This document shows positions 10,802 to 53,900 of a stretch of 64,000 nucleotides of DNA, one piece after another. Origin of the DNA: Candidatus Omnitrophota bacterium. GTDB lineage: Bacteria > Omnitrophota > Gorgyraeia > 2-02-FULL-51-18. The notes under the pieces were generated by a model. The model had not been told where the DNA came from. It worked only from the letters and a program-made list of their open reading frames with translations, and did no database searches. Positions within the stretch are counted from its first letter, which is position 1. The number at the start of each line of letters is the position of its first letter. The translations under genes were made by a program, and so were the position numbers. The stretch is from contig CAMDWQ010000005.1 of NCBI GenBank assembly GCA_945877765.1, positions 604 to 64,603 on the forward strand, written 5' to 3'.

Positions 10802-10869
10802 AAAATGCCCTCCGTTTAGGAGTTTACTATATTACTAGTTATTGTCAAGAGGGCACTCGCTCCGCCCAC

Positions 10870-10950: not shown

Positions 10951-10952
10951 AA

Positions 10953-12266: not shown

Positions 12267-12553
12267 CTTATCATCCCCCAGTAATCTTTTTCTTCACGGC
12301 TATTGGCTTTTCTTGCTGAAATAATCCGGATACTCTTACCTCGACGATGACAGTGGCAAACCACTAATACTCGTAACTGACCACTGATGCCAAGCATGAT
12401 AAATCGATCCTCATCCCTTGAGTGATCCGGATCAAAGAACTCAATACCGCGATCATCATAAAAAACAGTCTCGGCTTCCTCAAATGAAACGCCATGCTTC
12501 TGCTTATTTTCTATGCTTTTCTTTATATCCCATTCAAAGGAAAATCCACCCAT
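12263..12553 (-). CDS. BrnT toxin (DUF497)
   Basis: 96 aa. 'FEWDIKKSIENKQKHGVSFEEAETVF' matches the BrnT family. Overlaps brnA by 4 nt. Confidence 0.6.
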   Translation of the reverse strand: MGGFSFEWDIKKSIENKQKHGVSFEEAETVFYDDRGIEFFDPDHSRDEDRFIMLGISGQLRVLVVCHCHRRGKSIRIISARKANSREEKDYWGMIR

Positions 12554-12584
12554 ATTTATAGTGTATGTACAAAATATGTACTTG

Positions 12585-13892: not shown

Positions 13893-14143
13893 GAAACCTC
13901 GGGGGTGTATTGAAAACGCGGCATTTTTTTCCCATCAACGGTGACTGATTCAATAAACATTTTTTTAGGCCTTACCCAAAGAGCCCCCAGACGGTTGGCG
14001 TAAAGCGCTTTGTAGACAACCATCTCTTCCAAAGTCTCGCTGTGACGCGCAATCCCGAGAACCTCATAATTTTTTCCTTTGTAGTGACGGTATTTTCCGG
14101 GAGGTAGCAAAGGATCAGGGTGAAGCAAGTTTAAACGTGTCAA
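13889..14143 (-). CDS. DUF1653 domain protein
   Basis: 'YRHYKGKNYEVLGIARHSETLEEMVVYKALY...WVRP' family signature. Confidence 0.55.
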   Translation of the reverse strand: MTRLNLLHPDPLLPPGKYRHYKGKNYEVLGIARHSETLEEMVVYKALYANRLGALWVRPKKMFIESVTVDGKKMPRFQYTPEVS

Positions 14144-14910
14144 TCCAAAAACCCCCCGGTGGACTGCAAGGGTTGGTCGTTTTCCGATTTTGAAATCCAG
14201 ACGGCGATCGCATGACGCGGCGCCTTCGCCAGACCTTGGGAGTTAAACTGTATCGAGGTTTTTAGCACACCTTCGCGATACTGCATTTTTTTATGCTCCA
14301 ATGAAAGCGCCGTAAAATCATGCGGCAATATCTTGCCTTGGTTTTCACCGCCGCCGACGCGAGTCAGCATCCCGCACCCCAAATAAGCCGCATGGACGGA
14401 AATATTGTCGATGACGACCCCGTTGTGAGGAAGAAAAGAGACTTCAAATTCCATCGGCCCTTTTTGCTCCACCCGAAGGACACCGACATCTTTTTTTCCC
14501 TTAATGCTTAGCGTTGGCGAGCGATACCATTCTCTGGATTCTTTGCCATTCTCAACCATCATGGGCGTGTAAACGGACGACGTTTTCCATACCGCGGAAT
14601 ACTCTCTCTGGCGGCGAGTGTATTCCGCTGAAGAAAGAGCATCTTTCCACCCCAAGTAGTCCCAATAGTCGACATGAAACGCCACCGGCACAAACGCTTT
14701 CCAAAGATAAGGCGAATTTTTAAGCCCCGTCATCCACGCATCCGCCGGCGGACAACTCGAGCAGCCTTCGGAGGTAAAAAGCTCAATCAACACCGTCTGG
14801 TCCGGACCGCTTTGAAATGTCGCCATTCCCGCACCCGTGCTACTCACTGCACCGGCAGATAGGACTCCGGCAAATAATAAAAAAATGGTAAGGCTTAGAT
14901 TTCGACGCAT
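14140..14910 (-). CDS. DUF1223 secreted thioredoxin-like protein
   Basis: Signal peptide. 'ELFTSEGCSSCPPAD' and 'AFHVDYWDYLGWKD' signatures. Confidence 0.6.
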   Translation of the reverse strand: MRRNLSLTIFLLFAGVLSAGAVSSTGAGMATFQSGPDQTVLIELFTSEGCSSCPPADAWMTGLKNSPYLWKAFVPVAFHVDYWDYLGWKDALSSAEYTRRQREYSAVWKTSSVYTPMMVENGKESREWYRSPTLSIKGKKDVGVLRVEQKGPMEFEVSFLPHNGVVIDNISVHAAYLGCGMLTRVGGGENQGKILPHDFTALSLEHKKMQYREGVLKTSIQFNSQGLAKAPRHAIAVWISKSENDQPLQSTGGFLD

Positions 14911-14966
14911 GAGGTCATTCTAACATGGGCAGCGCCGCCAAGTCATGATCGGCAGCGATTTCCTGT

Positions 14967-17900
14967 TTAAGCCGACCAGTCAGTTTGCAAAGACAGACGA
15001 ATCGCCGACGCCATATCGTTTACCAACGCCGTGATAGGCGGCAGGAGAATCCATAGAAGACTCTCCCCTTCAATGATTTCCTGAGTCTGGATAGCGTAGA
15101 ATTTTGCCGAATCAATTTTGGGCTTTCCAAGTCTTAGGCTATTTAAAAAATTAATCAGCCCGCTCTCCCCGATAGCTTGAATCATCTGCTCTTTGCCCTG
15201 TCCGGCATGCGCTGACCACAGCCCCGCCAAAGTTTCCGCTTCTAAAAAAGCGATTCCCGTGTTGGGCAAGCCTTCGACGAGAAGTGCCACCACCGAATCA
15301 CTCTTTAGTTTTTCAATCTTGTCCCCTGCTTGGCTTAAGACAATCCGCGAGACAACCGCGCCCTCGGGTCTTTGGGTCAACACTTGACCCATTCTTGCTT
15401 TTGACTGAATCCTAGCAAGCCTTCTCTGCGCCGTTAACCCCATCTTGCCGGGAAGCTGGTCAATATTGAGAAGAATGTACTGGTTACCGCGAGAGCGCGC
15501 CACGCGGTCAAATATGGCCTTCAGCAGCACTTTCTTAGCCTTCAAATCAAGCACCGAGCCAAATCGAGGATCCACCAGCTGTGCCAAATCAATCTCAACA
15601 AAACCGAACCCCGTCCCGATCGCCCCAGGTACCTGCTCGTTCCACATTTTTTGCATGCGCTCAATCAGAAATCCCTGCCCCCGCCGAGCGCTTTGGCGGC
15701 CTTGGTCTTTTTTGAGAGTTTCCTTTATCATCCGCATTTCCTCGGGACTAATCCTAAAAAGAATCTTAGCTCCCACTCTGACTTGCAGCCCTTGAGCACT
15801 TTTGCGTAGATTGAAAATGGGAATTACTCCGCTTTCCTGCTGGACAGCCAAGCGCCCCCACATAGATTTCTTTCCATGCATAGGCATAGGCAGAGACATC
15901 TCTGTAAAAAAAGTTTTGAGGTCTTGGAGCGTTTGGGAATTGGTGGGGAGGGAATCCTCCATCTCGATTTTTTTATTTTCTGCCAGCCGCGCCGCCTGAT
16001 CCGCTCCGTCATTCTGAGGCGCTGCAGGCGATGAAGAATCCAAGCGATGAGATTCGTTGGCATCAGCCAATTTTTCCACTCGAGAAGCATACCTTGAGAT
16101 GTGCTGTCCTGGTTGTACGCCATATTGATCTTCTAGCGCATCTTTCAAAAGATCTTCTGCGATTTTTAAAATCTCGCCCTCATCGACATTTCCCCAAATA
16201 CGCTTGGAAATCAACTCGATTTCTTCACCAGAATGAAATGCCCCCGAAAGTGTATTCGCTTTAGTGGCATCATATTTCAAACGCTCTGAATGCATTCCAG
16301 TTGCCGGTCCTGCGTGGCGTAAGAATAATTGAATGCCACACTTTTGAAGGATAATTTTCGCCACGTAAGCAATATTTTGCGATGGCGCCATATGAATACC
16401 TTGGGAGTGCTTTATTTTCATGGTAATAATTTTTTCATTACCCTCGGATGCCGCCAACCGTGCGGCCGTCATTCCCCCCTGACCAAGCAAGTTCAAAGCT
16501 TTTGTGTATCGCACCAGCTGAGCTACGACTTGACTATTTTTATATTCAATGATGTTGCGCGAATGGGCCCATTTGTAATCCTGAAGCATTCCCGCCTCTG
16601 AGTTGAAAAAATAGGATTTTCTGCGATCTAAAAATAACTGCCAGGCGGAGATTTTTTCTGGCGGCTCAAATCCTTTTAACCGCTGGTTGAGGCTTTCCTC
16701 ATACCCGCCTTTGCCGGCGCGATAAAAAGTGATTTTCTGCCCCAATAAGGGGTAATCCTTACTATCTTTTAATACATCTGCAATAATGGGACGAGAGAGA
16801 CGTTGAATAAAATCCTCGTTGTATTTAAAAAAGGAGGTGTATTGCTGATGGAGATCATTCGGCATGCCAGAGATTGCGGGGTAAACGAAATTCTCATAAC
16901 TAATACCGCCATTAAAAAATGGGATTAACTGAGACCACACGCGGAATAAGCTCATCTGGACCGCAGATATCACCGTGTCCAGCTCATCGGTGATTTTCGA
17001 ATCTAGATCATCTCTAGGAATTGTGCTCAATGATTCATATTGTTTTTTTAAAAACAGCATGTTGGCGTGCATGATAATAAGGTCATGATGCGAATCACTG
17101 CTGAAACTATTAAAATGCACGCCCTGTAAAAAATGATAGAGCGCAATCATTTTGACCGCCTGCAAACGGCGCCTAAATAAAGGCGGATCCGTCGCATCTG
17201 ACTGCATGATTTCAGGCGAAAATAAATTTGGAAGCTGTAAAGACATCTTAATAAATCCTTCGTTCGCCAAAGGATCTTGAACGTTTTTCAAATCTCCCCC
17301 CAAGATCAAAAAACGTTTAAGCACCAGTCCAAAGAGAGATTCAAAATCCAATTTAAGCTTCGCATTAGAACCGTTGTTGTAAACTTCTATGGCCTCTTCC
17401 ATCACAACAACCTCGTGCTCAGAAAGAGGCTCGCTCATGGATTTTACGATGTACGCCATGGCAACCGCCTCCAGAGACTCAAGCGCGGTCCTTGCGCTCC
17501 AATCGCCTTGGTCCAAGATTACCGTCCCCTGATTACGCAACCTGTCCAGCGCCGAAGAGACCTGAGATGGAAAATTTTTATATTCGGAACCATCAAACAG
17601 TCGGTTGACAGCAAAAACCACCTCGCTGTACCCTCGAGCCGCATCGTGTGGTGACCCAACAGCGGCTGTTTGCCAACTCTGTATCAGGGAAAGCAAAGAA
17701 GACCTGCTTATCTGGGGATCATGGCCCGCCAACCGCGCCGCCGCAGCCGTGGAACCGGTGTCAGTCCTTGACATTTGACTTTCTGGGCTTTCCACCAACC
17801 CTTCGGCCCGCCTCAGGGCAAGCCGCGCACCAGAGCGGTGCTTATTTTCCAGTTGAATCAAGTGATTGAGCACTTCTGCCGTACTCGAGGCATCTCCCTG

Positions 17901-20900
17901 CCACTCTCCATCCGCAGAATGAAGCGCCCAACCCTCTGTGGTCTTCTCAATAGTTATATCGGTAGTGCTCGCTGGATTAGGTACGTCTTCGACACGTTTG
18001 ATGCCCGGTATCGCCCAGAAAATCTCGCGCCGAAGCGGGCGCGCATCCCTAGGTTCCCCGATCAATGCAACAGACTCGATGGTTGTTTCCCATGTGGGGT
18101 CGCTCACAAAAATTTTATTCCGTTCAGAGGCGGGAATCAAATCAGCGGGATCAATATAAATTATTTTATTTTCGACAGCCATTTGGTTGATAATGTCATA
18201 ATTCGGGTCTTGAAGACGATCGGCTTCCGCCTCATCCCGAAAATAAAAAATTGCCTGATGCAGGTGGGGAGCAATAATCGATTTGTTCCGGGATGGTCCA
18301 ATCTTACCGATGTTTTTTCCGTGACGGACACTATCACCTTGCTTAAGTCCCTCGGCTGGCACAATGTGCGTATAGACAGTATAAAGCTTCCTGCCGTAAA
18401 CGGTTGTTTCCATGATGACGGTGCTTTGCATGTCGTCTTCAAAGATCCATTTCACCTTGCCGTCGATCAAAGAAAAAACAGGTCGTCCTGATCCCGCCGC
18501 TTCCACCTTACCATCAACCGATTCAATGACCGCCAAATCAATACCGCCATGCTTCTGTTCCCGGTGCGACTTAAAACGGCTCACCTCTCGCCACCAACAT
18601 CCCAGATCCCCAAATTTCATTCCCTCGCGCAAAATAAAACGTCGAGCACCCCACTCCTTGGCCGTTTTTCTATAGGAAGATAAAACCATTCTGCTTAACT
18701 GACGGTGGGCCTTTTTCAGAAATATTTTATCCTGAGACTTCTCCCGGCTGTGGAGGTCTGTTTGGCCGACCATAACAGTCTCCTGCACTGCCGAAGGCTG
18801 TTCCGCCGGCTGATTTGGTTGCACCGCGCTTATATCTACTTCGGAACCGGTGTCAGTCCTTGACATTTGACTTACTGGTTTTTTCGCCAGCCTCGCGGCG
18901 GAAAGATCTCGTGTGGACGCATCAGTCAACGCCTCGATGAGCAAAGAAAATGGATTGTCTTGTTTAATAAGAATACCCCGCACCGTTAAAAAAGTTAGCT
19001 TTAGTTGATCTGTTATCTCAAAAGAGACCCTATTCTCCTCTTGTGGACGATCGTCCGAAACAACACTTGTTATTAGGTACCACATCTCTCCCTCGTTATT
19101 GAGGCACTGTTTAAAAATATTTGCTACCGATTCTTGTTTCGCATCAAAAAAATATCCATCAACAAACGATCGAAGCATCGCTACAAAATCCTCTGATGTA
19201 TCATGAACTAAAATCGTATGTAGAACCCTGCTAACATCCAGAAAACGAAGCCTGGCGGATCCTAGTGCGTCCGCCGATTCGGGCACATTCCAAACCGTGT
19301 TCAAATCTCTCAAAACAACATGCCACTTTTTCTCCTCGCTGCCCTGCATCAGCCCGGTATTAGCAAAAGTGGGGTAGCGATGAATATATCCATTTCGATG
19401 AAGCTCTCTCAGAGCCTTGCCATACTCATAAAATATTTTTTGGACTGATTCTTTGTTCTTTATGGGATTAAAAAAATCTCTGTCAGAGGCTTTTGAATCA
19501 GACGAGTTGTGCTTAAGATCACCAATAACTCCCTGATCTGTCACCGATAGCCGGAAATCTTCGCCGGTCATGCCGGCAGCGACCCAAGCATATTGTTGTG
19601 TGGAATCATGGCTACTTTCCATGAGTGCCCAGCCCAGAGCTTTATCGACCGGCAAGCTAAGCTGCGAGAGCTTGCGCATCAGCTCATCTTCGAGCTCTGC
19701 CCCCTTGGGATTTAAAGTACCGCTATAATTTTGCCCAGCAAATGTCGTTGTTGTAAATCGACCTTGATTATCGATGGTTGGTGGAAATTTTACAAAACCA
19801 GCCTCCCCCAAATAAGGCACTAACTTATTAGCCTCATCCACCCGCGGCCTTACACCCTTAAAACGGATATATAAAATCCCATCTATGGGAGAATCTAACT
19901 TCAAATAGATCGTTCGACCTTCCTCTGGCCAGAAATATTCACGATGTTGAATAAAAATTTTTCCTTGGTGTAAGGCTTGGGCCTGTAAAATATCCGCGGT
20001 ACTTACCAATGCCCCGGACATTATCTTTTCCGCGATAGCTTTTTCCTCGTGGCTCAAAGAGTCAAAAAATTTTGTATCACGGTGGTCTTTGACTATTTTA
20101 AAAGTGGCTTTTGCCAGCCGCGCGCCGGAGCGGCGTTTAGAAGAGATGGGGTCAGTCCTTAAGATTTTACTTTCTGAGTTTCCCGCCAACCGCGCCGCCT
20201 GAGGCCTAGTCTTTCCTTCAAGCTTATTTCGGATTGCCTGATAATCCGAATCATTCTGACCATTGTCTCTGATAATCAGCCTCTGATTACCAGGCAATGT
20301 GATCACCATAAATCGATTCGCTAACTCATTGGCAATGTGAACCTTCACTACATACGTCTGCAAGACATCTGGCGTCGTCACAAGGTACTCTTTGTAAGCA
20401 GGTGCTTGCGAGACATTCTTCGCATCAAAGCCATCTCCGGAACGAATCAGTCGGACAAAATCATGAACAAACGCCGGATCTTTTTTTTGGATGTTTCCGT
20501 TGATAGCATAGACTCTGGAACTGGTGTCAGTCCTTGACATTTGACTTCCCGAGTTTTCCGCTAACCCTTCGACCCGGCTCAGGGCTAGCCGCGCTGCAGC
20601 CCCACTGTTATCTTTCGAAGACTCACCACCCGTACTGCTTGGAATGAGCCCAGTAATCCAGGTAGCGACTTTGATGATGTTATCCGCAACGACTTTATCC
20701 CCATAATAAGAGGACAAAAGGCCTGCGGGTTCGCCGAAGCCCGGTACTCTACCGACCCATTTTTGAACCGAAAGTCTTATTTTTAAAATCACCAGAGGCT
20801 TCAGTTGTTTGAAAGACGCCAGAATCTGCAGAGGTACCCCGATAACATTAACAATGGGTAGAACACTAAGATAGGCCCAGCCGAATTTTTGCTCGGGGTG

Positions 20901-23900
20901 ACGGAACGCAAATATATACGTGGTCACAAACCGGTACGCTGAGCTGATCGACCACGAGATAAGAAGCCACTTCCAGTTGTTGCCCACGACACCCATGCCC
21001 ACCCCCAACAGATCGGAAGTCCATGTGAATATCTTTGGAAGCAAATGAAGCGAATAAAGAAGCAAATAGACATCGATCCCCGTGCTTGATTCCTTGAGAC
21101 CAGCAAGCTCATTTTTCTGATCCTCAGAAATCAACCCATGTGAATACGCTTTATCGATATCGTCAAAAAATACGCGATTGATAAAATTCATGCGGAATTT
21201 TTCCATAAAAATAAATTTCCCAATGTCAAAAGGAGCTTTGATTATCCGGAAAAGTGTTTTGACTGCCCAGCGGAGCACGCGCCAAGAAAAAGTGGCGGTT
21301 GCTGTGACGGCACTACGCATGAATTTGAATGGAAGTGTTAAAGAGTGCCCAACCATATAAGCTAAATAAGCAGACCTAGGCTCTCTAAATTCTCGGGCTT
21401 GTTCGGGACTGATGCGCTTGGTGATTTCCCAATAATCAATGTTATTTTTTCTTGAGAGCTTGAGAAATTCAGCAAGGTCAAACCCTTTTGCCCAAAACTG
21501 TGGGGAACGATCCAAGAAAGTCTCCCTAAGAGCACGATAATCTTTTATCCAAGCGGCTAGGTGAGCAGACTCCCCCGGTTCCAGTAAATCGGGGTGGGCT
21601 TTCATATATTCCTCAAAAAGATCCATATTCATTAGATGAAAAGTATCCGGATAATTCTCGGCTTGTTTCGCGTGATCAGTGGCGTCCCTGAATTGCTTAA
21701 AAAAGAAAAATGGAAACGTGTAGCCCCACAGCAGAGCCGATATATTTCTCTCCGTATCCACCCAAAGCATAAGGCCGCTTGCCAAACTCCGTTTGATGTT
21801 GGGAAATGAAAACCACGCCATCCCCGGCGCGCCGCTGTCATTGATAGCGACTTGAGAAATCAAGTTACCCGCACCGGCCTCCGCCAACGGCTGTTTAAGC
21901 TGGCGCATAAGCTCCACCTGTTCATCAAACTTTCCATCCTTCTCAGTTGACAACCGCAGATAAGACCCGCGCAGTTCGACGTAGTCCATCACCAGTGCCC
22001 AAGAGCCGGCTTGAGGAACCCAAGCATAGGCCTCGCGCGGAATGATGCCCTCAAAATTTTTACCTTTTAGAGAGCGAACGATCATGCTCAAAAATTTATA
22101 ATTATACAAAAGCGCCCTAGCGACCTCTTCATACCGCTGGGGACCAAACCCGCCTTGAAAGGTTAAAAAATATTGCACGTCCCGGATGATTCTTTTAAGC
22201 CCCCGCGCCCGAAATATCTTGAGGACCTTTATCTCTTTGTCTGGACCTTCCACTTTCCACACTTCACTAAAACCGCCGCCATCCCCCAGGCGAGATTTCA
22301 CCAGGTAGCTCTTATTGCCGAGACTATTCCCGGAAAAGTCCTTAAGCTCTAAGTTAATACTTAATTCTGGATACAGCCCATTTTTTGTATTTTCCGCCAA
22401 TCGCGCCGCGGTAGGCGTTAAGTGCCAAGCTTGATTTCCACTCGGTCGGGGTGTATATTCAGGGCGTAAAGGAGTTTTCCAATGAAAAAAAGCCTCATCT
22501 CCAGCGATCCCGATTTTTGCGCGGGGAAACTTTGCTTCACTGCGACGCGTATCCCTGTTTATATGGTTCTTGAGCTTCTCGAAGCGGGTGAATCTTGGAA
22601 AAAGATCCTCAAAAGCTACCCAAGTCTGAATGAGGCTCACATCCACGCCGCGCTTCACACGGCGGCTGAAGTCTTGAAAAATCAGGAATACCATTCTTTT
22701 GCCTAAATCTGACATTTCCTGGAAACTTTTTGGAGATGAAAATATCAGCTTTGACGTCATAAAATTTCTAAAGAAAAAGGGGTATAATGTCATTGCCTGC
22801 CCAAAAAGTCTAAAAAATGGCGAATTATTCCATCGGCTAATCAAAGAGAGACGAATACTTTTCACCCACGACAAGGACTTTCTGGACTCTGGGCGGTATC
22901 CTGCCTCTAAAACAGACGGCATTATATTCATCCCGATCCACCCCGCCACAGACAAAAATGTAATTCCCGCACTCCATAGCATGCTGGTAAAAATATCGCC
23001 GAGAGAAATATCTGGGCGGTTGGTTATTTTGTCAATGGATGGTTTCACCATCCAGCCGGACTCAGCAGACTTCGCTTCCTGATTCTCAGCTAGCCACGTA
23101 GTCTGATTTTTCTCCTCTATCCCATTGTCACGGCCTGTCTTCACCCCCAACGCCTGAGTAAGCTCCGCAATTTTCCCCGCCGTCAGAGTTCTGAGGAGCA
23201 TATTAGTTTTGGGTGTGAAGGAATTTAATACGGGAAGTGGTGAGTGGCTTTTTTGGCTTAAGAGAATTTGTTCGTATCTTTTGAGATTGGTCTCTTGCAA
23301 CACTTGAGGAGTCAGGGAAATGTAGGAGATGTTTTTCTGCTTGAGTAGGTATTTAAGATTGGGGGTGTGGTAGCCTCCGGTGATTAGAATGTACTCGTGT
23401 GCGGCGTGGGTAATGGTTTTTGTAGGTGCGGCGGGTCCGGGTCGCAAGCCCTCGCTTGCGACACTTCGCTTCGGCATGGATAGCCTTCGCGTCGTCACCT
23501 GTCGGACTCCGCTGTGCTCATGTAATTCTTCATTCCGCGCAGCGGAGGCCTCCCCTCCGGCGCCACCCGCATGTGCTTTGTTTGCTGTACCTGTCGCCGG
23601 GTGTGGGGTACTTTCTATCACCTCCAGCATATTGGAGATAAAGGCTTGGTCTCTTTGGTAGGTTAATTCATAGAAGTCTTCGCAATAACGAACCATGTCT
23701 TGGTAGCCATTTTCTAGGAATAAGGCTTTGTCATAATTGTTTTTTTGATTCATGAGCTTTTGGTTGAGGAAACCTGTGATTTTTTGGATACTCGTGTTTT
23801 GTTTATCTTTTCTATAAGACTCATACTCTTGGGGAGTTAGTTGAAGTAGGAATAATTTTTTTAGGAAGTCGATGTTGTTAGAAGCTTGAATTAGATTCTT

Positions 23901-25130
23901 TTCATCGGGGGTCACGATGAGAGAGTCGAGGATCTTTTGTTCTAGAAGCTTTTGTTCGTTTAGGATCTCTTGGGGGTTTAAGGACAATGAATATTTGAAA
24001 TAGGCTAGATACTTTTGAAGATGGGGATAGTTGCTATTGTCTTTTAGTTGATCCGATAGGAGAAAGAGGAAGGCTTTGTGGACTTGTTCGTCTTTGGATC
24101 TTGCGGCGTCTTGGAGCTCTTTTTGGGTTTGGGTGGAAAGAGAATTAATCAATAGGGCTTGTTCTTTTTGAGCTACTTCGAAGTTGATTTGTTTTTCTTT
24201 TTGGTTTAGGTCTTCTAGGAGTTGTATGTTTTTAAAGCCTTTAAGTTCTAGCTTTTGGGCTTCTTGAAAGAGAAGGCTTAGGTATTCTCGCAAAGAGAGC
24301 TCGCCTTTTTGGTGAGCTTTAAGTTTTTGGTTAAAGGCTAGAAGGTAGGGGTTTAAAAGAGTGGGCTCCAAGGTGTGAATTGTGTTTTCAACTTGTGCTA
24401 GATAATCGCTGTATTTTTCCCTTCGTTTGGCACTTCGCCGGTAAAGCTCCACCGACTTGGCGTAGAGAGACATGTCTTCTACTCCCCAGAGCGTCATGGG
24501 GTGATTGCTGGTTAGGTCTAGATACTCGGTGCCTTGGAGTTTGGCCTGGAGAAGAAAGGATTTGGCGACTTGTTGTCTTTTTTCAAGGGAGGCGTATTTT
24601 CTTAAGAAAGAGAGAGATTCGTTGCCGCTTCCAGCTTCTAGGAAGATGTAGTTTGAGAGATTCTTTTTCTGGCTATAGAGGATATCTAAGAGCTTCGCCT
24701 CATTGAGTTGTCCTGAGTTGTTGGTGTGAGCATCTTGAATTAGTATTACACATGCCGGGTGGCGCCGGAGGGGAGGCCTCCGCCGCGCGGAGTGAACATT
24801 TACACGAGCACGGCGGAGTACCGCAGGTGACAGGCCCCGGCCACTCCGTAGCACGCTTTTGGTTGGAGCAACCCAAGCATCTTCGATAGTTGCTACTGAT
24901 TCAGGGATTTGGGGAAGAAAGTCTTTGGCCCACTTTAGACTTTTTTGCTTTTCCCCTCCATCCTCAATCCTCCATCCTCTATCCGCCTTTAATAGTTCAG
25001 GAGCTGCATAAGAAAACTCTTGAATTAAAAGGCATAAAATTAGCGTGAGCGAGAGGCTCTTAAGAAAGACCGTTCGGGTCGCTTTATTAGCGAGGGCGGT
25101 GTTATTTGTCATAAGTTCATGTGTCAACAT
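14967..25130 (-). CDS. giant modular protein (3387 aa): signal/anchor, a ~600-aa N-module shared with the second giant ORF, a kinase-like module, an M23 peptidase module and further uncharacterised modules separated by AARLA-type junction motifs
   Basis: Single uninterrupted 10,164-nt ORF. N-terminal hydrophobic segment. The N-module aligns with ORF 47988..55961 ('IQDAHTN', 'LEAGSGNESLSFLRKYASLEKRQQVA', 'GGYHT'). Gly-loop 'LGDGGGFSEVWKVE..KVLKI'. M23 signature 'HGGIDLA...YTVYTHI...GDSVRHGKNIGKIGPSRN...PHLH' at about 18230..18560. Confidence 0.7.
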   Translation of the reverse strand: MLTHELMTNNTALANKATRTVFLKSLSLTLILCLLIQEFSYAAPELLKADRGWRIEDGGEKQKSLKWAKDFLPQIPESVATIEDAWVAPTKSVLRSGRGLSPAVLRRARVNVHSARRRPPLRRHPACVILIQDAHTNNSGQLNEAKLLDILYSQKKNLSNYIFLEAGSGNESLSFLRKYASLEKRQQVAKSFLLQAKLQGTEYLDLTSNHPMTLWGVEDMSLYAKSVELYRRSAKRREKYSDYLAQVENTIHTLEPTLLNPYLLAFNQKLKAHQKGELSLREYLSLLFQEAQKLELKGFKNIQLLEDLNQKEKQINFEVAQKEQALLINSLSTQTQKELQDAARSKDEQVHKAFLFLLSDQLKDNSNYPHLQKYLAYFKYSLSLNPQEILNEQKLLEQKILDSLIVTPDEKNLIQASNNIDFLKKLFLLQLTPQEYESYRKDKQNTSIQKITGFLNQKLMNQKNNYDKALFLENGYQDMVRYCEDFYELTYQRDQAFISNMLEVIESTPHPATGTANKAHAGGAGGEASAARNEELHEHSGVRQVTTRRLSMPKRSVASEGLRPGPAAPTKTITHAAHEYILITGGYHTPNLKYLLKQKNISYISLTPQVLQETNLKRYEQILLSQKSHSPLPVLNSFTPKTNMLLRTLTAGKIAELTQALGVKTGRDNGIEEKNQTTWLAENQEAKSAESGWMVKPSIDKITNRPDISLGDIFTSMLWSAGITFLSVAGWIGMNIMPSVLEAGYRPESRKSLSWVKSIRLSLISRWNNSPFFRLFGQAMTLYPFFFRNFMTSKLIFSSPKSFQEMSDLGKRMVFLIFQDFSRRVKRGVDVSLIQTWVAFEDLFPRFTRFEKLKNHINRDTRRSEAKFPRAKIGIAGDEAFFHWKTPLRPEYTPRPSGNQAWHLTPTAARLAENTKNGLYPELSINLELKDFSGNSLGNKSYLVKSRLGDGGGFSEVWKVEGPDKEIKVLKIFRARGLKRIIRDVQYFLTFQGGFGPQRYEEVARALLYNYKFLSMIVRSLKGKNFEGIIPREAYAWVPQAGSWALVMDYVELRGSYLRLSTEKDGKFDEQVELMRQLKQPLAEAGAGNLISQVAINDSGAPGMAWFSFPNIKRSLASGLMLWVDTERNISALLWGYTFPFFFFKQFRDATDHAKQAENYPDTFHLMNMDLFEEYMKAHPDLLEPGESAHLAAWIKDYRALRETFLDRSPQFWAKGFDLAEFLKLSRKNNIDYWEITKRISPEQAREFREPRSAYLAYMVGHSLTLPFKFMRSAVTATATFSWRVLRWAVKTLFRIIKAPFDIGKFIFMEKFRMNFINRVFFDDIDKAYSHGLISEDQKNELAGLKESSTGIDVYLLLYSLHLLPKIFTWTSDLLGVGMGVVGNNWKWLLISWSISSAYRFVTTYIFAFRHPEQKFGWAYLSVLPIVNVIGVPLQILASFKQLKPLVILKIRLSVQKWVGRVPGFGEPAGLLSSYYGDKVVADNIIKVATWITGLIPSSTGGESSKDNSGAAARLALSRVEGLAENSGSQMSRTDTSSRVYAINGNIQKKDPAFVHDFVRLIRSGDGFDAKNVSQAPAYKEYLVTTPDVLQTYVVKVHIANELANRFMVITLPGNQRLIIRDNGQNDSDYQAIRNKLEGKTRPQAARLAGNSESKILRTDPISSKRRSGARLAKATFKIVKDHRDTKFFDSLSHEEKAIAEKIMSGALVSTADILQAQALHQGKIFIQHREYFWPEEGRTIYLKLDSPIDGILYIRFKGVRPRVDEANKLVPYLGEAGFVKFPPTIDNQGRFTTTTFAGQNYSGTLNPKGAELEDELMRKLSQLSLPVDKALGWALMESSHDSTQQYAWVAAGMTGEDFRLSVTDQGVIGDLKHNSSDSKASDRDFFNPIKNKESVQKIFYEYGKALRELHRNGYIHRYPTFANTGLMQGSEEKKWHVVLRDLNTVWNVPESADALGSARLRFLDVSRVLHTILVHDTSEDFVAMLRSFVDGYFFDAKQESVANIFKQCLNNEGEMWYLITSVVSDDRPQEENRVSFEITDQLKLTFLTVRGILIKQDNPFSLLIEALTDASTRDLSAARLAKKPVSQMSRTDTGSEVDISAVQPNQPAEQPSAVQETVMVGQTDLHSREKSQDKIFLKKAHRQLSRMVLSSYRKTAKEWGARRFILREGMKFGDLGCWWREVSRFKSHREQKHGGIDLAVIESVDGKVEAAGSGRPVFSLIDGKVKWIFEDDMQSTVIMETTVYGRKLYTVYTHIVPAEGLKQGDSVRHGKNIGKIGPSRNKSIIAPHLHQAIFYFRDEAEADRLQDPNYDIINQMAVENKIIYIDPADLIPASERNKIFVSDPTWETTIESVALIGEPRDARPLRREIFWAIPGIKRVEDVPNPASTTDITIEKTTEGWALHSADGEWQGDASSTAEVLNHLIQLENKHRSGARLALRRAEGLVESPESQMSRTDTGSTAAAARLAGHDPQISRSSLLSLIQSWQTAAVGSPHDAARGYSEVVFAVNRLFDGSEYKNFPSQVSSALDRLRNQGTVILDQGDWSARTALESLEAVAMAYIVKSMSEPLSEHEVVVMEEAIEVYNNGSNAKLKLDFESLFGLVLKRFLILGGDLKNVQDPLANEGFIKMSLQLPNLFSPEIMQSDATDPPLFRRRLQAVKMIALYHFLQGVHFNSFSSDSHHDLIIMHANMLFLKKQYESLSTIPRDDLDSKITDELDTVISAVQMSLFRVWSQLIPFFNGGISYENFVYPAISGMPNDLHQQYTSFFKYNEDFIQRLSRPIIADVLKDSKDYPLLGQKITFYRAGKGGYEESLNQRLKGFEPPEKISAWQLFLDRRKSYFFNSEAGMLQDYKWAHSRNIIEYKNSQVVAQLVRYTKALNLLGQGGMTAARLAASEGNEKIITMKIKHSQGIHMAPSQNIAYVAKIILQKCGIQLFLRHAGPATGMHSERLKYDATKANTLSGAFHSGEEIELISKRIWGNVDEGEILKIAEDLLKDALEDQYGVQPGQHISRYASRVEKLADANESHRLDSSSPAAPQNDGADQAARLAENKKIEMEDSLPTNSQTLQDLKTFFTEMSLPMPMHGKKSMWGRLAVQQESGVIPIFNLRKSAQGLQVRVGAKILFRISPEEMRMIKETLKKDQGRQSARRGQGFLIERMQKMWNEQVPGAIGTGFGFVEIDLAQLVDPRFGSVLDLKAKKVLLKAIFDRVARSRGNQYILLNIDQLPGKMGLTAQRRLARIQSKARMGQVLTQRPEGAVVSRIVLSQAGDKIEKLKSDSVVALLVEGLPNTGIAFLEAETLAGLWSAHAGQGKEQMIQAIGESGLINFLNSLRLGKPKIDSAKFYAIQTQEIIEGESLLWILLPPITALVNDMASAIRLSLQTDWSA
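22482..22706 (+). CDS. DUF433 protein (antitoxin-like partner of DUF5615), nested antisense inside the giant ORF
   Basis: AAAGGAG ribosome-binding site 8 nt upstream. 'ATRIPVYMVLELLEAGESWKKILKSYPSLNEAHIHAAL' matches the DUF433 family. Confidence 0.55.
   Translation: MKKSLISSDPDFCAGKLCFTATRIPVYMVLELLEAGESWKKILKSYPSLNEAHIHAALHTAAEVLKNQEYHSFA
22699..23082 (+). CDS. DUF5615 PIN-like protein (toxin-like), nested antisense inside the giant ORF
   Basis: Overlaps the DUF433 gene by 8 nt (typical TA coupling). 127 aa. DUF433-DUF5615 is a known gene pair. Confidence 0.5.
   Translation: MPKSDISWKLFGDENISFDVIKFLKKKGYNVIACPKSLKNGELFHRLIKERRILFTHDKDFLDSGRYPASKTDGIIFIPIHPATDKNVIPALHSMLVKISPREISGRLVILSMDGFTIQPDSADFAS
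23485..23572. repeat. MITE family C copy, in-frame inside the giant ORF (inverted relative to the copy at 24754)
   Basis: Reverse complement matches the 24754..24845 and 63585..63680 elements ('gcggaggcctcccctccggcgccaccc'). Translated within the giant protein as '...GGAGGEASAARNEELHEHSGVRQVTT...'. Confidence 0.55.
24754..24845. repeat. MITE family C copy, in-frame inside the giant ORF
   Basis: 'gccgggtggcgccggaggggaggcctccgccgcgcggagtgaacatttacacgagcacggcggagtaccgcaggtgacagg'. Encodes '...NVHSARRRPPLRRHPA...' in the giant protein. Confidence 0.55.
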
Positions 25131-31270: not shown

Positions 31271-31284
31271 GACACCCCTTCTAA

Positions 31285-47418: not shown

Positions 47419-47991
47419 ATGCCTAGGCCATCAAGAATGATTTACGAGGAAGCGTTTTATCATGTATTTAACCGTGGAGTTAATAAAATGCCTATATTTT
47501 TTGATGAATTAGATAATAAAATATTTATAAAAATATTGCGTCATGAAGCATTGGAAATGAATGTTCGTGTGTTTGCTTATTGTCTAATGCCGAACCATTA
47601 TCATTTATTCATCCAAACTAAAAATGCTAATTTGAATATATTCATGCAAAAATTGGCAGGTCGCTATGTCCAGTTAGTTAATTTCCGGCATAGCCGGGTT
47701 GGCGCATTGTTTCAAGGTAGATATCAAAATCGTCTGGTGGATATCGACTCGTACGCACTGAGGTTAACTAGGTATATTCATCTGAATCCGGTGATCGCTG
47801 GTTACGCCAAAAGGCCGCAGGACTATCCATGGTCCAGTTACAACAGTTATCGAGACAACCAAAATTCTTGGATATCGACTGACTTACCGCTAGAGCTTTT
47901 AGGTGGAAAAAATAAAGCTTCGTTTAGGCAATTTGAGAAGTTCCATGAAACGGTGCCAGAGGGGTCTGACCCCTATGGTACCGTGGTTTAG
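47419..47991 (+). CDS. REP-associated tyrosine transposase (RAYT, IS200/IS605-like Y1 transposase)
   Basis: HuH motif 'HYHLF'. 'YIHLNPV' family signature. 190 aa. The 3' end reads through another REP copy (47953..47982). Confidence 0.75.
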   Translation: MPRPSRMIYEEAFYHVFNRGVNKMPIFFDELDNKIFIKILRHEALEMNVRVFAYCLMPNHYHLFIQTKNANLNIFMQKLAGRYVQLVNFRHSRVGALFQGRYQNRLVDIDSYALRLTRYIHLNPVIAGYAKRPQDYPWSSYNSYRDNQNSWISTDLPLELLGGKNKASFRQFEKFHETVPEGSDPYGTVV

Positions 47992-50900
47992 GCGGCCTGG
48001 AGAAATTGGCGCTGCTGACTGGCGAGAAAACGCAGGGCCGTGCTGACGTCGACCTGGGTGAGCGCCCGCAAAGCCAATCGTGCGGCTAGTTGAAGCAACG
48101 CCCGGCCCAAGAGGACTTCCGTGAGTTCTTGGGTTTCGGGACGCAGTCCTGAAAGCGTCGCCCAGGCATCGTCAAACGGCTGAGGACGGTTTTTGGGATC
48201 CTTCAGACGGCCCAAAATGATGGCTAACTGCATGAAGCTAAATGATAACACGTCGCCATCGGCCACTTCTTTCACCGGCACGCGAAGCTCTTCTTGGAGA
48301 GCGGGCCTCTGCGGCGGACCAACACGCACCATCTCGGCTCCCACCAAGTCCTCGGGGGCAGATTCCAGAAAGAGACTACTATCCCAGCGGATCCAAGTAG
48401 CGGCATTGACGCCGACGGGAACCAAATAGACGTTTCGTCCCCATTCTTTCGATTTTATCGTATGTAAATACAGGATAAACGCTTCAAGGTACGCAGGACT
48501 TGCCATGTCCAGCCAGGCGGTGTTGATTTCTAAAATCACAGGCTTGGTGTGATCCACAATCACCGAATCCAAGAGCGAGTTGACGCGCCCTTCCACCGAA
48601 GAGGAAAGACTACTCAGCGCACTGATACTGTCCGCACCACGGCCACGACTGCGAATCAACTGCTCATACTGCCCGCGAGTTACCGTCAGAATAGATTTAC
48701 TGTAGCCACGAAGCCAAAGCTCGGCTTCCCCCTTCTTATTCATCCTGACATTTAATAGGGATGAATCTCGACCCCTAGCTGTCTCTACGGGGAAATCCGC
48801 CTCATTTTTTAATTGTGCTATTTCCCAGGTAGAAACCTTAAAAAGGTTCCTATTTTTTCGAATCAAACGGCGTAGATAGCTTTGTGACCGCGTAAGCGAA
48901 GACGCTGCACGGGCTCGAGGCCGACTGCTGGCCGACGACGCATTTTGCAAGCGTGATCGTGAAACATAAGGCTCGATAATAGATAAGCCGGCCAGTCGGG
49001 CGGCAACTGACGGAGAGACAAAAATAACAGTCTGCGTGAATTCATATGTTCCCCGCGGTGGCACTTTTATATAAAAAAACATCGCATCAGGCTTATTTCT
49101 GGTTAATTCTAATTCCTGGTCTCCGATATTCAGAATGCGCGTGGTAACGGTTGCATAATCATCCGTTAATGTAAACGTCCTATCAATCGTAAAATCTTGA
49201 TACTGGCGAGTCTCCAGCTCTAAATTGGAATTCATTGAAGTGGAAAGCTCCTCAAGGCGCATCTTAACAAATGCTGTGCCGTTGACACGGTTAGCGTCTA
49301 TCATCTTCCATTGCCCATTAAGCAGAGTTGGATATGCCCAAAAATGTCCATCCAATGTTTGGCCATTAACAGCGGTAGTATTCCAAAAAACAGGCATTGT
49401 CGCTCGAGCTGGGATCCGGAGCGAGCTCCTTCCCGATAGACTTATAAGCTTAATCCAATCTCTCCCATCACGCTTTTCAACCGGCAATACTCTCTTAGCT
49501 ATCGCAGATAAAATATTTCTTGCTAACTCACTATCTGTTTTTAGTGAGAGCTGCGTCGAAGATGCTTCTGGATTATTATCTGTTGGATTTGAAAACGATA
49601 AAAATTTGTGCATTTTTTTACCCTCTCTTTGAAAATCAAATTCAAGAGAGACAATCATTTGTTTTCCCCGCTGTCCGTGAGGGATACGAATGGTCAAGAG
49701 CCCATCCGTAAAATCGAAACTATCAAAAACGTATACATTGTTTGTAGATCCTGTAGCGCGTACGCCATGAACAAGCTCTCTAAAATTAGTGAAACGGCCA
49801 ATAGCTGCGATCAGCTCGTCACTAGTTATGCTCTGGACTTCATCATCAACCCATGCCGCCAACCGCGCAGCAACCGGAACCGCTGGAACCTGATAAGTCG
49901 CTTCACTTTGAAAATAACTGGTAGGCGCCGTCGGATTCATTTTGGAACCATAGGCAACCGCAAACAGATTCCCTTCTTTGGACTCATACATTTTGTCGCC
50001 ACTATCCATCGCGATTACTTTAAATCTAAATATGCCAGGTCGCTTAGCTTTTAGATTTAGAACATAGCGAAAGATGCCATCCTGGGAAAAATTCGGATCC
50101 CGAACCATATCAAATTCCGACTCAACCTCACGCTCATCCTCAGTATATTTCAACGTCACCTTCACAGAAGCAGCTGCTTCGGCCACATACGCTTCAATTA
50201 AAAATGGGGTTATCTCTGTATTGGCCGTATCCGTAAACCGATGCATTTCCTCGCGATCGTTTTCACTGTCGGGACTTGTGCGAACGATAAGATCTTCTTT
50301 TTTTTTCTCTAGATCTTTTTCTGAAAGCTCTTCCCTCTTGGCGAGCAATTTCTTAATCAGTGCTACGGCGCGTGTTACTTCCACGGGCACCGCCTGGCCA
50401 TCTTCGGTCACCGGATTTCCCTGTAAAGCGGCTCTGAGATTTTCAACAGTGATAGGTAACTTGTTTTCCCATTGGCCGGATTTTTTCCCCGCTACGTTTA
50501 TTTTGTTCTCCGGTCCATACGCTCCGAGGTCAAGCCAGTTGGGAACAAACATGAGCGAATCCGACATAAAGCTAAGCTCAAGCAATGCCTCTTGCACAGC
50601 GGAAGTCAATTCGCCTGACTCGGCTATGGAAGGGTCCAACCCCGTCATTTCAGGAAATTGCGCTCGGGCGATTTCTAAAAATGCTCTTCTTGTGCCTGTG
50701 TCGGTTTCATTCCAGTCACTGCGCATGGACTCTGAGTCATGAAGACTATAAGTCCTAAAAGCAACCGGCTGTGAGGAACGTGGATCATGAACATTTTCAC
50801 CATTCTCACTGGGCATTTTTCCCCACATGGAGCATACATAATCAAAAGCACCTAGATGAGGCTTTTTGAGCTGTTCCGACGTAAAACGCGCCAATGTCTC

Positions 50901-53900
50901 AAAGATCACCGACGTCCCCGCTTTTTTGGCCCGATCCAGAAGCTCTGAAAAAAGTTCCTCTCCCGGACCGTAATCGTAGGCAGCGACACGCAAGTTATCG
51001 TCGGCCTGGGGACCCTCGCCTTCGAAAAGATACTGAACAATTCCATTATCTATATCTTTATCAACCAAATCTCTTTTTCCATAACGATGGTCTGTCAGCC
51101 GGACATAATTCCACACCGGCCCCTGCCCGTAAACTTTTGGCTCCACCACATCATCCACACGGACCCATGGCGCCTCCAATCCTTGATACTTGTCATCTGC
51201 TTTTTTAGCCTCGCGCGCGACGTACATCATCGCGTACTCGGCCAAATGATCTTCGTCTGGATAAGCCAAGTCCACGAGCCTTTTGACCAAGGGATTGGCG
51301 GAAATTAATTCCGATGTTTTCAGCGCGTGTGCAAAAATCGCGGTAACTTTGGCGGCGGTCTGCTTCTTAATATTCTCCGCCTCAACTGGCTTTTGACTAG
51401 CCTCGGCCTTGGCGGCATCAACCATTGATCGCACTTGGTCATAGACCCCTAGACTCCCAAGAGTAAACTGACTTTCACCATCTTCCATATACAAATACGC
51501 CAAATAAAACCCAAGCACATGATCCAAGCGTATCGTGGTCGCCATTTTCTGGTAGTACTCAAAAAGCTTGATCATGTACGGCAGAGTATCCGGATGAGAC
51601 CAATCATAAGCAAAAAACTGCCAGTATTGACCAATGGGGTGCTTTTCCTCCGGTAGAGAGCCGTGCGTAAAAGGCCTTTGGTAACCATTTTCTTTTTTAA
51701 GACCGAAAATCTGGGGATTCATCCACACGTCAGCCCCGCCTCGGGCGAAAGGAATATCCATGGCGACTTGAATGCCATTTTCCTTAGCAACCGCCGCATA
51801 CTGATCAAATTGATCCCGCGCGACAAACTGGATAAACGAGCGAAGTTCAATCTCGCCTGCATATTTATTTTTCAAGCGCGCAATTTCATCCGCATTTCTA
51901 TCACTAATGAGTTCCTCCCAAGTTCTCCAATCCCAGCCATTAAATGGATTTTTACTTAGATGTTCTTCTTTGAGAATAAGAAATAGCATATGATCCGGTA
52001 GCCAGTCCGCGTGGTTGGCCTTAAACTCATCAAATTTTTGCTTGGTCTGGCTCTCTTTAAACCCAGCCGAATTTTTTAAAGAATCCCAAATAATTTCAAG
52101 GGCTTCTTTATTAAGCGCAATCACTTGGTCATGCTGAATCGTTTCGCTGTCGCTGAGGCTTTGAATTTGCTGAGCATGCGCTGTAACAAACTCGTCATAG
52201 GCTCTAAGATCCAGATCGCCGTTGAAAGATTCTTTTAGGGCGGCTACCAACATCGGAACGCTGATATAACGAAGGTCAATCGCTCGAGAACTATCCTCCG
52301 AATACGGCGAATTAAATGCCGCCGACCATATCAGTGGAAGGATCTGATGCATCGTCAATCCCATTTCTTTAAAAATAGGGATCATTTGAATAGCGGTCTG
52401 GAAATTTCCTATTCCCCAATCACCCTTGTGACGCAGATGGTGAAACGGCATGAAAGACCCTGTGATTCTCTTGCCGTATTCGACGGGAGAAATAAAATCT
52501 TTCGCTAGGGGCCTATCAACAACCTCAATCGCCGCCAAGCGCGCGCCATCAGCTTTCACCAATCCCGAATCGCGCAAGATGTCTTCAGGTTTAATGGCAG
52601 AGCCCATCATCATCAAATGCGCGCCTGTAACCCAAGGATAATCCCGACGAATTTTTTGGATTTGCTCAACAGCCTTGCGTCGACTAAATTTTTTGAAATT
52701 GTCATGTTTTTCAGTAGTATCTTTCTTCCACTCCGCTTCGTATTCACGCACAAGCCTAAAAGCCTCTTCATTTTTTCTCCAATTAATTCCCGTCAAATAC
52801 ATCCAAAATCGGATTCCCCATGGAGAAGCAAAAGCGGTAATACCCACATGAACTTTGATGTCTTTTGTGCGATCGTCCTCGTGAATTGCTTCCAAGTACT
52901 GTTCGAATGGCTCCCATAAGATTGGGGGCTGCGTAAATATGCCCTGAACATTTTTATGAGCCAGTCTTTCAGCGGTTTCCGCTGTAGGATATAAATTTGG
53001 ATTTGCAGCAGCATATAGTGAGATATTGTTAGCAGAGGGATTCATCAAATCTCTTGCCATTGAAGCTACGCTTTTCGATGAAACGGGCCATATTTCTGAG
53101 CCTGCCAAAAGATTTTTAAATAAACGTTGAGCTAACCCTCCTCCCGTGACTACAAATAATCCAATAATGTTTTGGTTTTCAGCGGCTAAGGAGATTACAG
53201 CTTCAAGACGCTTTATCAAACTATTTCTTCGACGCGCATTCGCCGCTATAGTCACAATGGTATTGAATTTGCTTCCGGCGGCCAACTCGAGAGTATCATC
53301 CGTTTTCACCAATCGCTTTCTGTAATTTTTAAAAACCTTCCAAAAGTCTAAGTTTCCGTTCATCTGGCTTTGATAAAATACATATAGATCTCTATCTTTC
53401 CACCAGGATTCAATTCCTTTTATGAAGAAAACGTGCTTAAGAATCGAGTCAACCACATGTGCCCATAAAAATTCAAGAGCTTGAAAACGTGCCGAGTAAG
53501 GTAGGTCTGTTAAAGTAAGTGCATACACGCCGAGTTTTTTTAATCGGTCCGGGCTACTGCTATTGAGCCCATTAGAACTCTCGACGGTGATAATAAAGCT
53601 ACTGTTTGCCTCCGCCAACCGCGCGCCCTCATCGCGAGCTTCCCTATGCTCGCGTCGCCATAGATTTCGCCTTGCTTTGTCGGTAGCCCTATTAAAATGA
53701 GGCCCCCCACCTTTCGATTTAGCCCCTACAAGTAATTCCGGCTCCCCTGCCAAAAATTTGCTCGCCATTTCGCGTGCAGAAATACGAGCTTCCTCTTTCA
53801 AATCTGATCCTGGTTGCTCTAATATTTTCAGTGTATTAAAAATGTTTATTTTTCCAGAATCATCAGCGCGCTCAAAAACTCGTTCGAGCATAATCAAAGC

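Follow-up and report, generated by a model that had tools for sequence, protein, structure and literature searches.

A short recurrent motif bounds the gene-sized modules of a giant Omnitrophota protein headed by a TIKI-like domain

Are the giant proteins of Omnitrophota used as single chains, or are they taken apart into pieces? A short motif standing at the domain boundaries of one family of such proteins now makes this question testable. We address it through an open reading frame (ORF) of 3387 codons, ORF A, carried by a 64,000-nucleotide (nt) stretch of contig CAMDWQ010000005.1 (assembly GCA_945877765.1, Candidatus Omnitrophota bacterium), hereafter the window. A preliminary description of this DNA had reported ORF A as uninterrupted without stating its strand; the ORF lies on the minus strand, opens with ATG and its translation contains no internal stop. 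A second giant in the window, ORF B, is its paralogue. As had been proposed, the two share a module over their first ~560-600 amino acids (aa), with 35% identity and with both His-containing motifs present in each ('IQDAHTN'/'IRDAHTN' and 'GGYHT'/'GGFHT' in ORF A/ORF B), and the glycan transferase suspected in the paralogue is a GH77 module. ORF A is a genuine gene and a member of a large Omnitrophota giant-protein family. An assembly chimera is an unlikely origin for it, given that ORFs of the same architecture occur in dozens of independent metagenome-assembled genomes; P0015, an entry of an NCBI-derived collection located on a 105,940-bp contig, is identical to ORF A and represents the same gene, not independent evidence.

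The motif [AG]ARLA occurs 15 times in a six-frame translation of the window, nine times in ORF A, six times in ORF B and nowhere else, in keeping with the earlier proposal that the gene is modular with AARLA motifs as module boundaries. ORF A thereby falls into eight pieces, 128-907 aa long. When the 4-mers of family ORFs were screened without bias, GARL was found 214 times against 6.8 expected and GARM 64 times against 1.2 expected, and GARL, GARM, ARLA and ARMA rank next below the invariant motifs of the head, the N-terminal module common to the family. The family logo of the motif reads S/A, G (261) or A (59), A, R, L (254) or M (70), and A (246) or S (49), with hardly any information outside these positions. 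Similar residues are clearly told apart, with R present in 268 cases against K in 2, and L in 204 and M in 64 against V in 2, F in 6 and I in none; the residue following L/M is A in 268 cases and S in 51. Head-bearing ORFs contain 2.1 motifs per 1000 aa and other ORFs of at least 1000 aa, which are mostly family fragments, contain 1.7, compared to 0.14-0.18 in ordinary ORFs. The first copy usually lies at aa 550-660, just past the head, and within family ORFs the motif is never found inside the head. From -5 to +9 around the motif the hydrophobic fraction is 0.20-0.23 against a background of 0.33, as would be expected of an exposed linker. Some lineages carry a [GA]-S-R-L/M-A variant and a few members are devoid of any motif. 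The possibility that the L/M position is an internal NTG start codon was ruled out, Val (GTG) being found there in 2/310 cases and Ile never.

The motif [G/A]-A-R-[L/M]-[A/S] is a boundary between gene-sized modules. In relative L079, a complete J-domain (Pfam positions 1-63 of 63; aa 1586-1649) fills a 71-aa module, and a complete PGI (486/486 profile positions, E 3e-221) stops 9 aa ahead of the next motif. Malate synthase and isocitrate lyase occupy adjoining modules of L034, in which the lyase begins 10 aa past a motif. L001 carries a Nudix domain, two NAPRTase-type regions, a nicotinamidase-type domain and a NadD-like end, together an NAD-salvage set. Across 150 family modules, a Pfam census revealed 42 families, each present in only one or two modules, most modules having no match at all; these families include PGI, hexokinase, RidA, PALP, methyltransferases, adenylate kinase, UDPGP and HAD, as well as CsrA, AsnC-type HTH, ThiS, NUDIX and HEAT. 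The two glyoxylate-shunt enzymes of L034 lie in a single giant ORF (9962-21370); the shunt was reported as absent from all 176 complete Omnitrophota genomes analysed in a 2026 preprint (Nielsen and Lui, 10.64898/2026.06.07.730766).

A scan of one genome per GTDB species yielded 276 relatives, essentially all of which belong to Omnitrophota metagenome-assembled genomes; the exceptions are some records under the label Planctomycetia, one under Auribacterota and a short contig labelled 'Saccharibacteria'. This large family had escaped the preliminary description. Among the 80 loci kept, a genome typically shows 4-6 family copies. ORFs of at least 1200 aa begin with the head in 59 cases, many of which leave the contig after >3800 aa; relatives range from 1500 to 6600 aa in length and their heads are mutually only 30-45% identical across genomes. 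The family plan, as predicted from these sequences, is a Sec-type signal or anchor, a ~550-aa TIKI-type head, variable cargo bounded by motifs, and a short tail ending in Ala-COOH. Modules have a median length of 249 aa, 307 of 355 (87%) are BLASTP singletons, and the head and a ~35-aa tail are the only common parts; no second conserved module that could represent a dedicated protease was found among these 355. A metagenome scan returned no orthologue with the cargo of ORF A. The preliminary description would have taken the absence of a conserved orthologue as a refutation, which would misfire here because the architecture is conserved in the 276 relatives despite cargo without orthologue. L001 has an N-terminus nearly identical to that of ORF A and entirely different cargo.

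Complete family ORFs end in Ala in 20/22 cases and in Ala-Ala in 14/22, commonly with ARLA or ARMA ~8 aa before the end. Other giants (P0028-P0071), including head-bearing giants devoid of the motif, also mostly end in [A/S]-A-COOH (QAA, RSA, ESA), and because Ala-type ends extend to giants lacking the motif, this terminus may serve as a recognition signal at the C-terminus. Tandem arrangement of family genes is frequent (L025, L046, L062 and L064), the second gene of L062 starting 4 nt past the first. In L001 (11945-12160), a short tandem repeat (TDPRH...) just past the first motif contains a frameshift that leaves two genes of 672 and 2653 aa; an assembly error, pseudogene formation or phase variation could account for it.

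The N-terminus of ORF A looks like a Sec signal peptide or signal anchor; the hydrophobic segment, already pointed out in the preliminary description, is conserved, with a basic part, an h-region and A-x-A kept in 16/16 aligned heads. In the same alignment D133, A134, H135, N137, E165, G216 and E218 are invariant, and GG(Y/F)H recurs near aa 588. The head is predicted to adopt the alpha/beta fold of the TIKI superfamily, with the central parallel beta-sheet of ChaN, Ere, TraB, RRSP, HopBA1 and PMT. Fold comparison gave figures of 8.8 for ChaN, 7.8 for HopBA1, 7.7 for EreC, 7.5 for both RRSP and a TraB-family protein, 6.9 and 6.6 for two Ere-like proteins and 6.3 for PMT. ChaN, HopBA1, Ere, RRSP, TraB and PMT are the very proteins grouped in the TIKI superfamily (PMC6254334). 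The catalytic 2His/2Glu set of RRSP consists of E3900-x-H3902, E3930 and H4030 (PMC6254334), and the spacing of D133-x-H135, E165 (+30 residues) and H588 in the head appears to parallel it, with Asp instead of the first Glu. The two His motifs, not assigned previously, would then be a TIKI-fold catalytic-type signature.

The Pfam models of the superfamily (TraB_PrgY_gumN, Cofac_haem_bdg and Erythro_esteras) had no match at E <= 1 to the head of ORF A, and the best Pfam match among the 16 heads, to Cofac_haem_bdg (the ChaN family) in one member, was below significance (E 0.019). Foldseek of the head against the PDB returned nothing significant, and a head profile matched no PDB sequence. The head shares with the TIKI/TraB-PrgY-GumN/ChaN/erythromycin-esterase/RRSP superfamily a parallel-beta-sheet core and the order acid-x-His ... 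Glu ... His, and differs from it by the lack of a significant Pfam match, by a ~290-aa helical insert and by its Asp. The head would typically be extracytoplasmic, like ChaN, Tiki and PrgY. Overall, the head looks like a TIKI-superfamily-type hydrolase-like core with a putative hydrolytic activity. A GC-rich, hairpin-forming dispersed repeat of ~75-85 nt is present in three copies in the window (24756-24821, 23505-23570 in the opposite orientation, and 63589-63673), two of which are in-frame insertions in the head (aa ~104-125 and ~521-542, in low-confidence loops of the model). This repeat resembles Rickettsia palindromic elements, and the second insertion is also found in relative P0001.

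We give about an even chance to the reading that ORF A belongs to a group of punctuated polyproteins specific to Omnitrophota, exported and cut at the motif, possibly by their own head. The precursor would be translated as a single chain and exported or anchored via its N-terminus, and an endopeptidase would cut it at the motif, freeing the modules as separate proteins. The cut would most plausibly fall between L/M and the following residue, because a small residue here (A > S > G, T) is what a P1' position would call for. Wnt3a is cleaved by Tiki at a Leu-Ala bond. In MARTX toxins, the cysteine protease domain likewise cuts only after Leu, between effector modules (PMC2780291). The candidate protease, in cis or in trans, would be the TIKI-like head, the sole candidate encoded in the protein itself; RRSP and Tiki, both members of the TIKI family, are endopeptidases (PMC6254334). 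Processing is favoured because the motif has the specificity of a protease site, sits exactly between autonomous domains and has an exposed context, and because the modules have stand-alone homologues and the fold of the head includes site-specific endopeptidases. The motif is thereby the first concrete candidate site for the cleavage of these bacterial giants. If cleavage is true, the family would represent a cellular, multi-copy bacterial polyprotein strategy carrying whole metabolic enzymes, together with a new TIKI-fold activity.

Several observations weigh against this interpretation. A TIKI fold does not imply protease activity because proteins with this fold vary in activity and also comprise esterases and a haem binder (PMC6254334). 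The head also exists as a genuine stand-alone 478-aa gene in a housekeeping context, and it is not strictly coupled to the motif, which is missing from the head-bearing giants L002 (at least 3954 aa), P0024 and P0071; stand-alone head genes beside headless motif-bearing giants were not seen. PGI, hexokinase, the J-domain and CsrA depend on a cytoplasm, and such cargo is a poor fit with export to the periplasm of the producer. A purely peptide-level signal does not account for the constrained synonymous positions of the motif described below, and cleavage itself is an inference from sequence. The lack of strict coupling between head and motif and the diverse activities of TIKI-fold members would also suit processing by another protease acting in trans, whether from the cell or from a host, the head having an esterase, haem-related, anchoring or export role; we consider this unlikely given that none of the loci examined links a candidate protease to the family and that the head is the only conserved module. 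Alternatively, the chain might remain uncleaved as an N-terminally anchored 'beads-on-a-string' scaffold in which the motif is a hinge or a docking motif for a chaperone, an export factor or a scaffold. Nielsen and Lui view comparable Omnitrophota giants as membrane-anchored multi-enzyme proteins. Family members without motif exist, and at the tail motif a cut would free merely a small peptide. However, conservation of five residues, with R told from K and L or M from V or I, is not normally expected of a passive linker while heads diverge to 30-45% identity. With short linkers and mutually unrelated modules, obligatory co-assembly also has no obvious purpose, so that a permanent scaffold seems to us rather improbable, if a serious contender. 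We attach hardly any weight to an artefact, either an assembly chimera or ordinary genes fused through sequencing errors. The data are indeed metagenome-assembled genomes and L001 is split by a frameshift, but two such ORFs lie in a single window, the 59 head-initiated ORFs of at least 1200 aa come from independent metagenome-assembled genomes, the modules have no start contexts of their own, and their boundaries consist of a specific in-frame motif rather than intergenic sequence.

Another alternative arises from the nucleotide sequence of the motif. Over 377 sites, third codon positions inside the motif contain 0.38-0.62 bits compared to about 0.01 in flanking codons, with a consensus of ~16 nt, C-GGC-GCG-CGG-YTG-GCG (for example at window positions 20184-20198 and 17727-17741). 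Codon choice in the motif is biased relative to the rest of the same ORFs (CGG 56% versus 19%, GCG 63% versus 35% and GGC 71% versus 34%; p 1e-8 to 1e-48), and most genomes show the same preference. This constraint on synonymous sites is a hint of an additional role at the nucleic-acid level and leaves a function at the level of mRNA or recombination open. The motif could even be primarily a nucleic-acid signal, that is, a ~16-nt in-frame joint for cassette exchange between paralogues or an mRNA pause or structure element, the peptide being a by-product or a second use. This would be compatible with the codon bias, with mosaic, hyper-variable cargo behind a conserved head, and with the wholly different cargo that ORF A and L001 carry behind nearly the same N-terminus. 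On the other hand, L020, L043 and L047 avoid the preferred codons altogether. Every synonymous codon occurs somewhere in the motif, so that selection must act on the peptide. Outside the sense strand and a single phase of family ORFs the DNA 11-mer is almost never met, no recombinase is linked to the family, and amino-acid discrimination exceeds nucleotide discrimination; for these reasons we find a primary nucleic-acid signal doubtful. A pure DNA repeat was ruled out by the varying synonymous codons and by flanks without nucleotide information. We also regard as speculative, and improbable as a whole, a cassette-polyprotein system in which an exported TIKI-protease head would process its own chain at G-A-R-L/M-A while the ~16-nt site would act as an in-frame joint for swapping cargo between paralogues and genomes, providing ultra-small Omnitrophota with a hyper-variable arsenal directed against or into host cells.

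Cargo and topology bear on where the proposed polyproteins would act. The preliminary description had called ORF A an envelope protein possibly acting on the envelope of another cell, which is not established: the N-terminal segment and one region (aa ~1416) are the only parts of ORF A that pass a strict hydropathy threshold, and family cargo consists mostly of cytoplasmic-type enzymes and regulators (PGI, hexokinase, isocitrate lyase, NAD-salvage enzymes, J-domain and CsrA). Topology signals conflict, with an N-terminus predicting export, an M23 peptidase that would suit the periplasm or the outside, and much family cargo of cytoplasmic type. The extreme variability of the cargo suggests that these proteins play an accessory part in interactions, for instance as effectors or exo-enzymes of a host-dependent nanobacterium, and not in core metabolism. 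With a conserved head and hyper-variable cargo, the family would be nearer to effector or polymorphic systems than to core metabolism, and would fit the host-dependent lifestyle proposed for Omnitrophota.

That nothing comparable exists, as first stated, was too strong, given that multi-enzyme giants of Omnitrophota are the subject of two preprints; the motif, its nucleotide constraint and the TIKI-like head nevertheless appear undescribed. Nielsen and Lui define a 'multi-enzyme metabolic cluster' class with signal peptides or transmembrane (TM) helices, and West-Roberts et al. (2023, 10.1101/2023.11.21.568195) speculated on the cleavage of giant proteins, invoking C39 and S8 peptidase domains, and noted that the points of cleavage were not known. 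Like the family of ORF A, these long proteins come from Omnitrophota, are tiled by unrelated enzyme domains (hexokinase, NUDIX, methyltransferases and HEAT), mostly bear a signal peptide and/or TM helices, and have been suggested to undergo post-translational cleavage. The named relatives of ORF A are encoded by Omnitrophota metagenome-assembled genomes, in agreement with class 1 of Nielsen and Lui, and many Pfam domains tile the chain at the family level, ORF A itself having one Pfam match and two profile-level kinase-like modules. ORF A is therefore a smaller new member of a known Omnitrophota giant-protein phenomenon, the published catalogues covering proteins of >=10,000 aa (the threshold of Nielsen and Lui, above the 3387 aa of ORF A) or >30,000 aa. 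Neither preprint describes the punctuation motif or the TIKI-like head, the 2026 text mentions neither motif nor cleavage nor linker, and the C39 and S8 domains invoked by West-Roberts et al. were not found in ORF A. In the literature searched, no paper combined Omnitrophota with polyprotein, and the term 'bacterial polyprotein' was essentially missing.

MARTX toxins (the RtxA family of Vibrio) resemble ORF A in having conserved ends and a mosaic of exchangeable central modules. Their internal protease is an inositol-hexakisphosphate-activated cysteine protease domain (Peptidase_C80). They are secreted precursors of 3500-5200 aa whose modules are freed by cleavage after a P1 Leu in short sites between the domains (PMC2780291, PMC5218395). 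The motif-split modules of ORF A would be analogous to MARTX effectors and their Leu-containing processing sites, cleavage being in the case of ORF A something that we only infer. The MARTX effector RRSP has the TIKI fold also predicted for the head of ORF A, but in MARTX the TIKI domain is cargo and not the processing enzyme. ORF A further differs by the lack of RTX or glycine-rich repeats (Pfam, NCBIfam), its repeats being short linker repeats, by the lack of Peptidase_C80 and of a type-1-secretion context, and by family cargo made up largely of central-metabolism enzymes and orphans. Viral polyproteins of the picorna-, poty- and alphavirus type likewise hold several proteins per ORF, a short conserved site per junction and possibly an embedded protease, and in ORF A a short conserved site is found at every junction between predicted products. 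In contrast to viral polyproteins, ORF A is a cellular chromosomal gene among housekeeping genes, its family is multi-copy per genome, and the cargo is different in each copy.

The cargo of ORF A itself is predicted to comprise two divergent protein-kinase-like modules (M2 and M4), a LytM/M23 peptidase (M5) and five orphans (segment 1b, M3, M6, M7 and M8; see the table). Peptidase_M23 is the sole Pfam match over ORF A. The M23 signature that had been recognized at about 18230..18560 scores above the Pfam cut-off (PF01551, 36.1 bits versus 28.7, aa 2211-2295; 39.7 bits and E 5.6e-10 for the isolated module), and M5 has the Zn-ligand motifs of LytM/lysostaphin-type M23 peptidases, HxxxD in HGGID (aa 2194-2198) and HxH in HLH (aa 2289-2291, PHLH starting at 2288). 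The Gly-loop/Lys pair 'LGDGGGFSEVWKV...KVLKI' (aa 948-973) that had suggested a kinase-like fold in M2 holds at the profile level against solved kinases. M2 has a Gly-loop LGDGGGFSEVWKV at 948, KVLKIF at 968, AWFSFPN at 1105 and LWVDTERN at 1122. Whereas M2 alone had no Pfam or PDB match, a profile of its N-terminal half with homologues added gave 409 PDB matches, nearly all of those listed being kinases (best E 2.6e-5), and aligned on GxGGFSxVWK...K with the kinase Gly-loop and beta3 Lys. Homologues of M2 obtained by exhaustive HMMER search include a true stand-alone gene of 634 aa, P0017.

The second kinase-like module, M4, had not been noticed before. Its catalytic loop, 'YIHRYPTFAN', has Tyr in place of the HxD Asp and is accompanied by 'VVLRDLNT'. 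The M4 profile had 73 PDB matches, almost all of them kinases, with E 2.3e-4 (best) to 1e-3 for Bud32/TP53RK and 0.017 for WaaP, aligning 'HRYPxxxN' with 'HGDLxxxN' and 'RDL(D/N)' with 'IDFG'. Exhaustive HMMER search found ~45 homologues of M4, many within other giants. K85, E141, H244, N251 and D269 are invariant, and the position of the HxD Asp is Y/F/N in homologues; M2 has W at that position, at an equivalent spacing before its invariant N199. The two profiles therefore resemble solved kinases, in particular atypical protein kinases such as Bud32/TP53RK and WaaP, over the Gly-loop and beta3 Lys for M2 and over the catalytic-loop and DFG regions for M4. Unlike known kinases, both lack the catalytic HxD Asp, are not detected by Pfam and are embedded in a polyprotein-like chain. 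Word-indexed searches with M2 and M4 returned no homologues, and the Pfam kinase models (Pkinase, RIO1, Kdo, APH and ABC1) had no match at E <= 1 to M2, M4 or ten homologues. Because both modules are without the catalytic Asp, they point to an atypical or pseudokinase chemistry, possibly non-phosphotransfer. A single-sequence AF2 model of aa 913-2077 (M2-M4) had a pLDDT of 35.9, too low for a reading of the fold.

Some linkers and orphans of ORF A deserve mention. An 84-nt direct repeat is found in three or four linkers (17750-17833, 18842-18925 and 20516-20599, and also 20148-20198) and encodes an extended linker, ARLA-LSRVEGLAENSGSQMSRTDT; a sequence related to this repeat, '...NLRTDPRH', follows the first motif of L001. 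The body of M8 is common to L004 only. The existence of a conserved ~330-aa C-terminal module was ruled out, since iteration of a hidden Markov model (HMM) yielded only ORF A and L004 and hhalign gave a probability of 0.3 between A-type and B-type ends. An HPr-like nature of M7, suspected by eye, found no support in Pfam, BLASTP or the PDB and was discarded.

Table 1. Features of ORF A and ORF B, with positions in the window
Feature	Residues (aa)	Position (nt)	Strand	Remarks
ORF A	1-3387	14967..25130	-	3387 aa; ATG start, stop codon within coordinates (ORF listing)
N-terminal basic and hydrophobic stretch	16-43	25002..25085	-	ends ...SYA followed by AP; Kyte-Doolittle peak aa 18-36
Head (TIKI-like)	~60-640	23211..24953	-	predicted alpha/beta core of TIKI/ChaN/TraB/Ere/RRSP type; ~290-aa helical insert
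First catalytic-type head motif, Q-D133-A-H135-T-N137		24720..24737	-	partners E165 (24636-24638) and GGYH588T (23364-23378)
AARLA	908-912	22395..22409	-	
M2	913-1511	20598..22394	-	divergent kinase-like part, then hydrophobic C-terminal half (aa ~1290-1490)
AARLA	1512-1516	20583..20597	-	first copy of 84-nt linker repeat (ARLA...SQMSRTDT)
M3	1517-1644	20199..20582	-	orphan
AARLA and GARLA	1645 and 1669	20112..20198	-	19-aa spacer between
M4	1674-2077	18900..20111	-	second kinase-like domain, Bud32/WaaP-like type
AARLA	2078	18885..18899	-	
M5	2083-2433	17832..18884	-	LytM/M23 domain at about 18231-18563
GARLA and AARLA	2434 and 2464	17727..17831	-	copy of 84-nt linker repeat between
M6	2469-2888	16467..17726	-	orphan
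AARLA	2889	16452..16466	-	
M7	2894-3045	15996..16451	-	orphan
AARLA	3046	15981..15995	-	
M8	3051-3387	14970..15980	-	family-typical tail ...LLPPITALV...AIRLSLQTDWSA-COOH
ORF B (paralogue)		47988..55961	-	2657 aa; head 54279-55961, six motifs, GH77 module
ORF B motifs	562, 779, 1139, 2031, 2320, 2626		-	
ORF B GH77 4-alpha-glucanotransferase module		50454-52436	-	Pfam E 2e-59

ORF A is preceded by an AT-rich 160-nt spacer bearing a promoter-like match, and both giants sit among ordinary chromosomal genes (RlmH, glycerol kinase, a BatA-D operon, IlvD, PanE, QueC and a two-component system). Upstream of the ORF A region, the BatA-D-like aerotolerance operon (28623-36207, minus strand) encodes VWA, TPR and BatD proteins. 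An ORF for an IS200-like Y1 transposase (47419-47991, plus strand) runs towards ORF B, with an overlap of 4 nt at the stop codon of the latter. The window also contains a divergent pair of tRNA genes, tRNA-Arg(TCT) at 8128-8204 on the minus strand and tRNA-Pro(TGG) at 8288-8362 on the plus strand.

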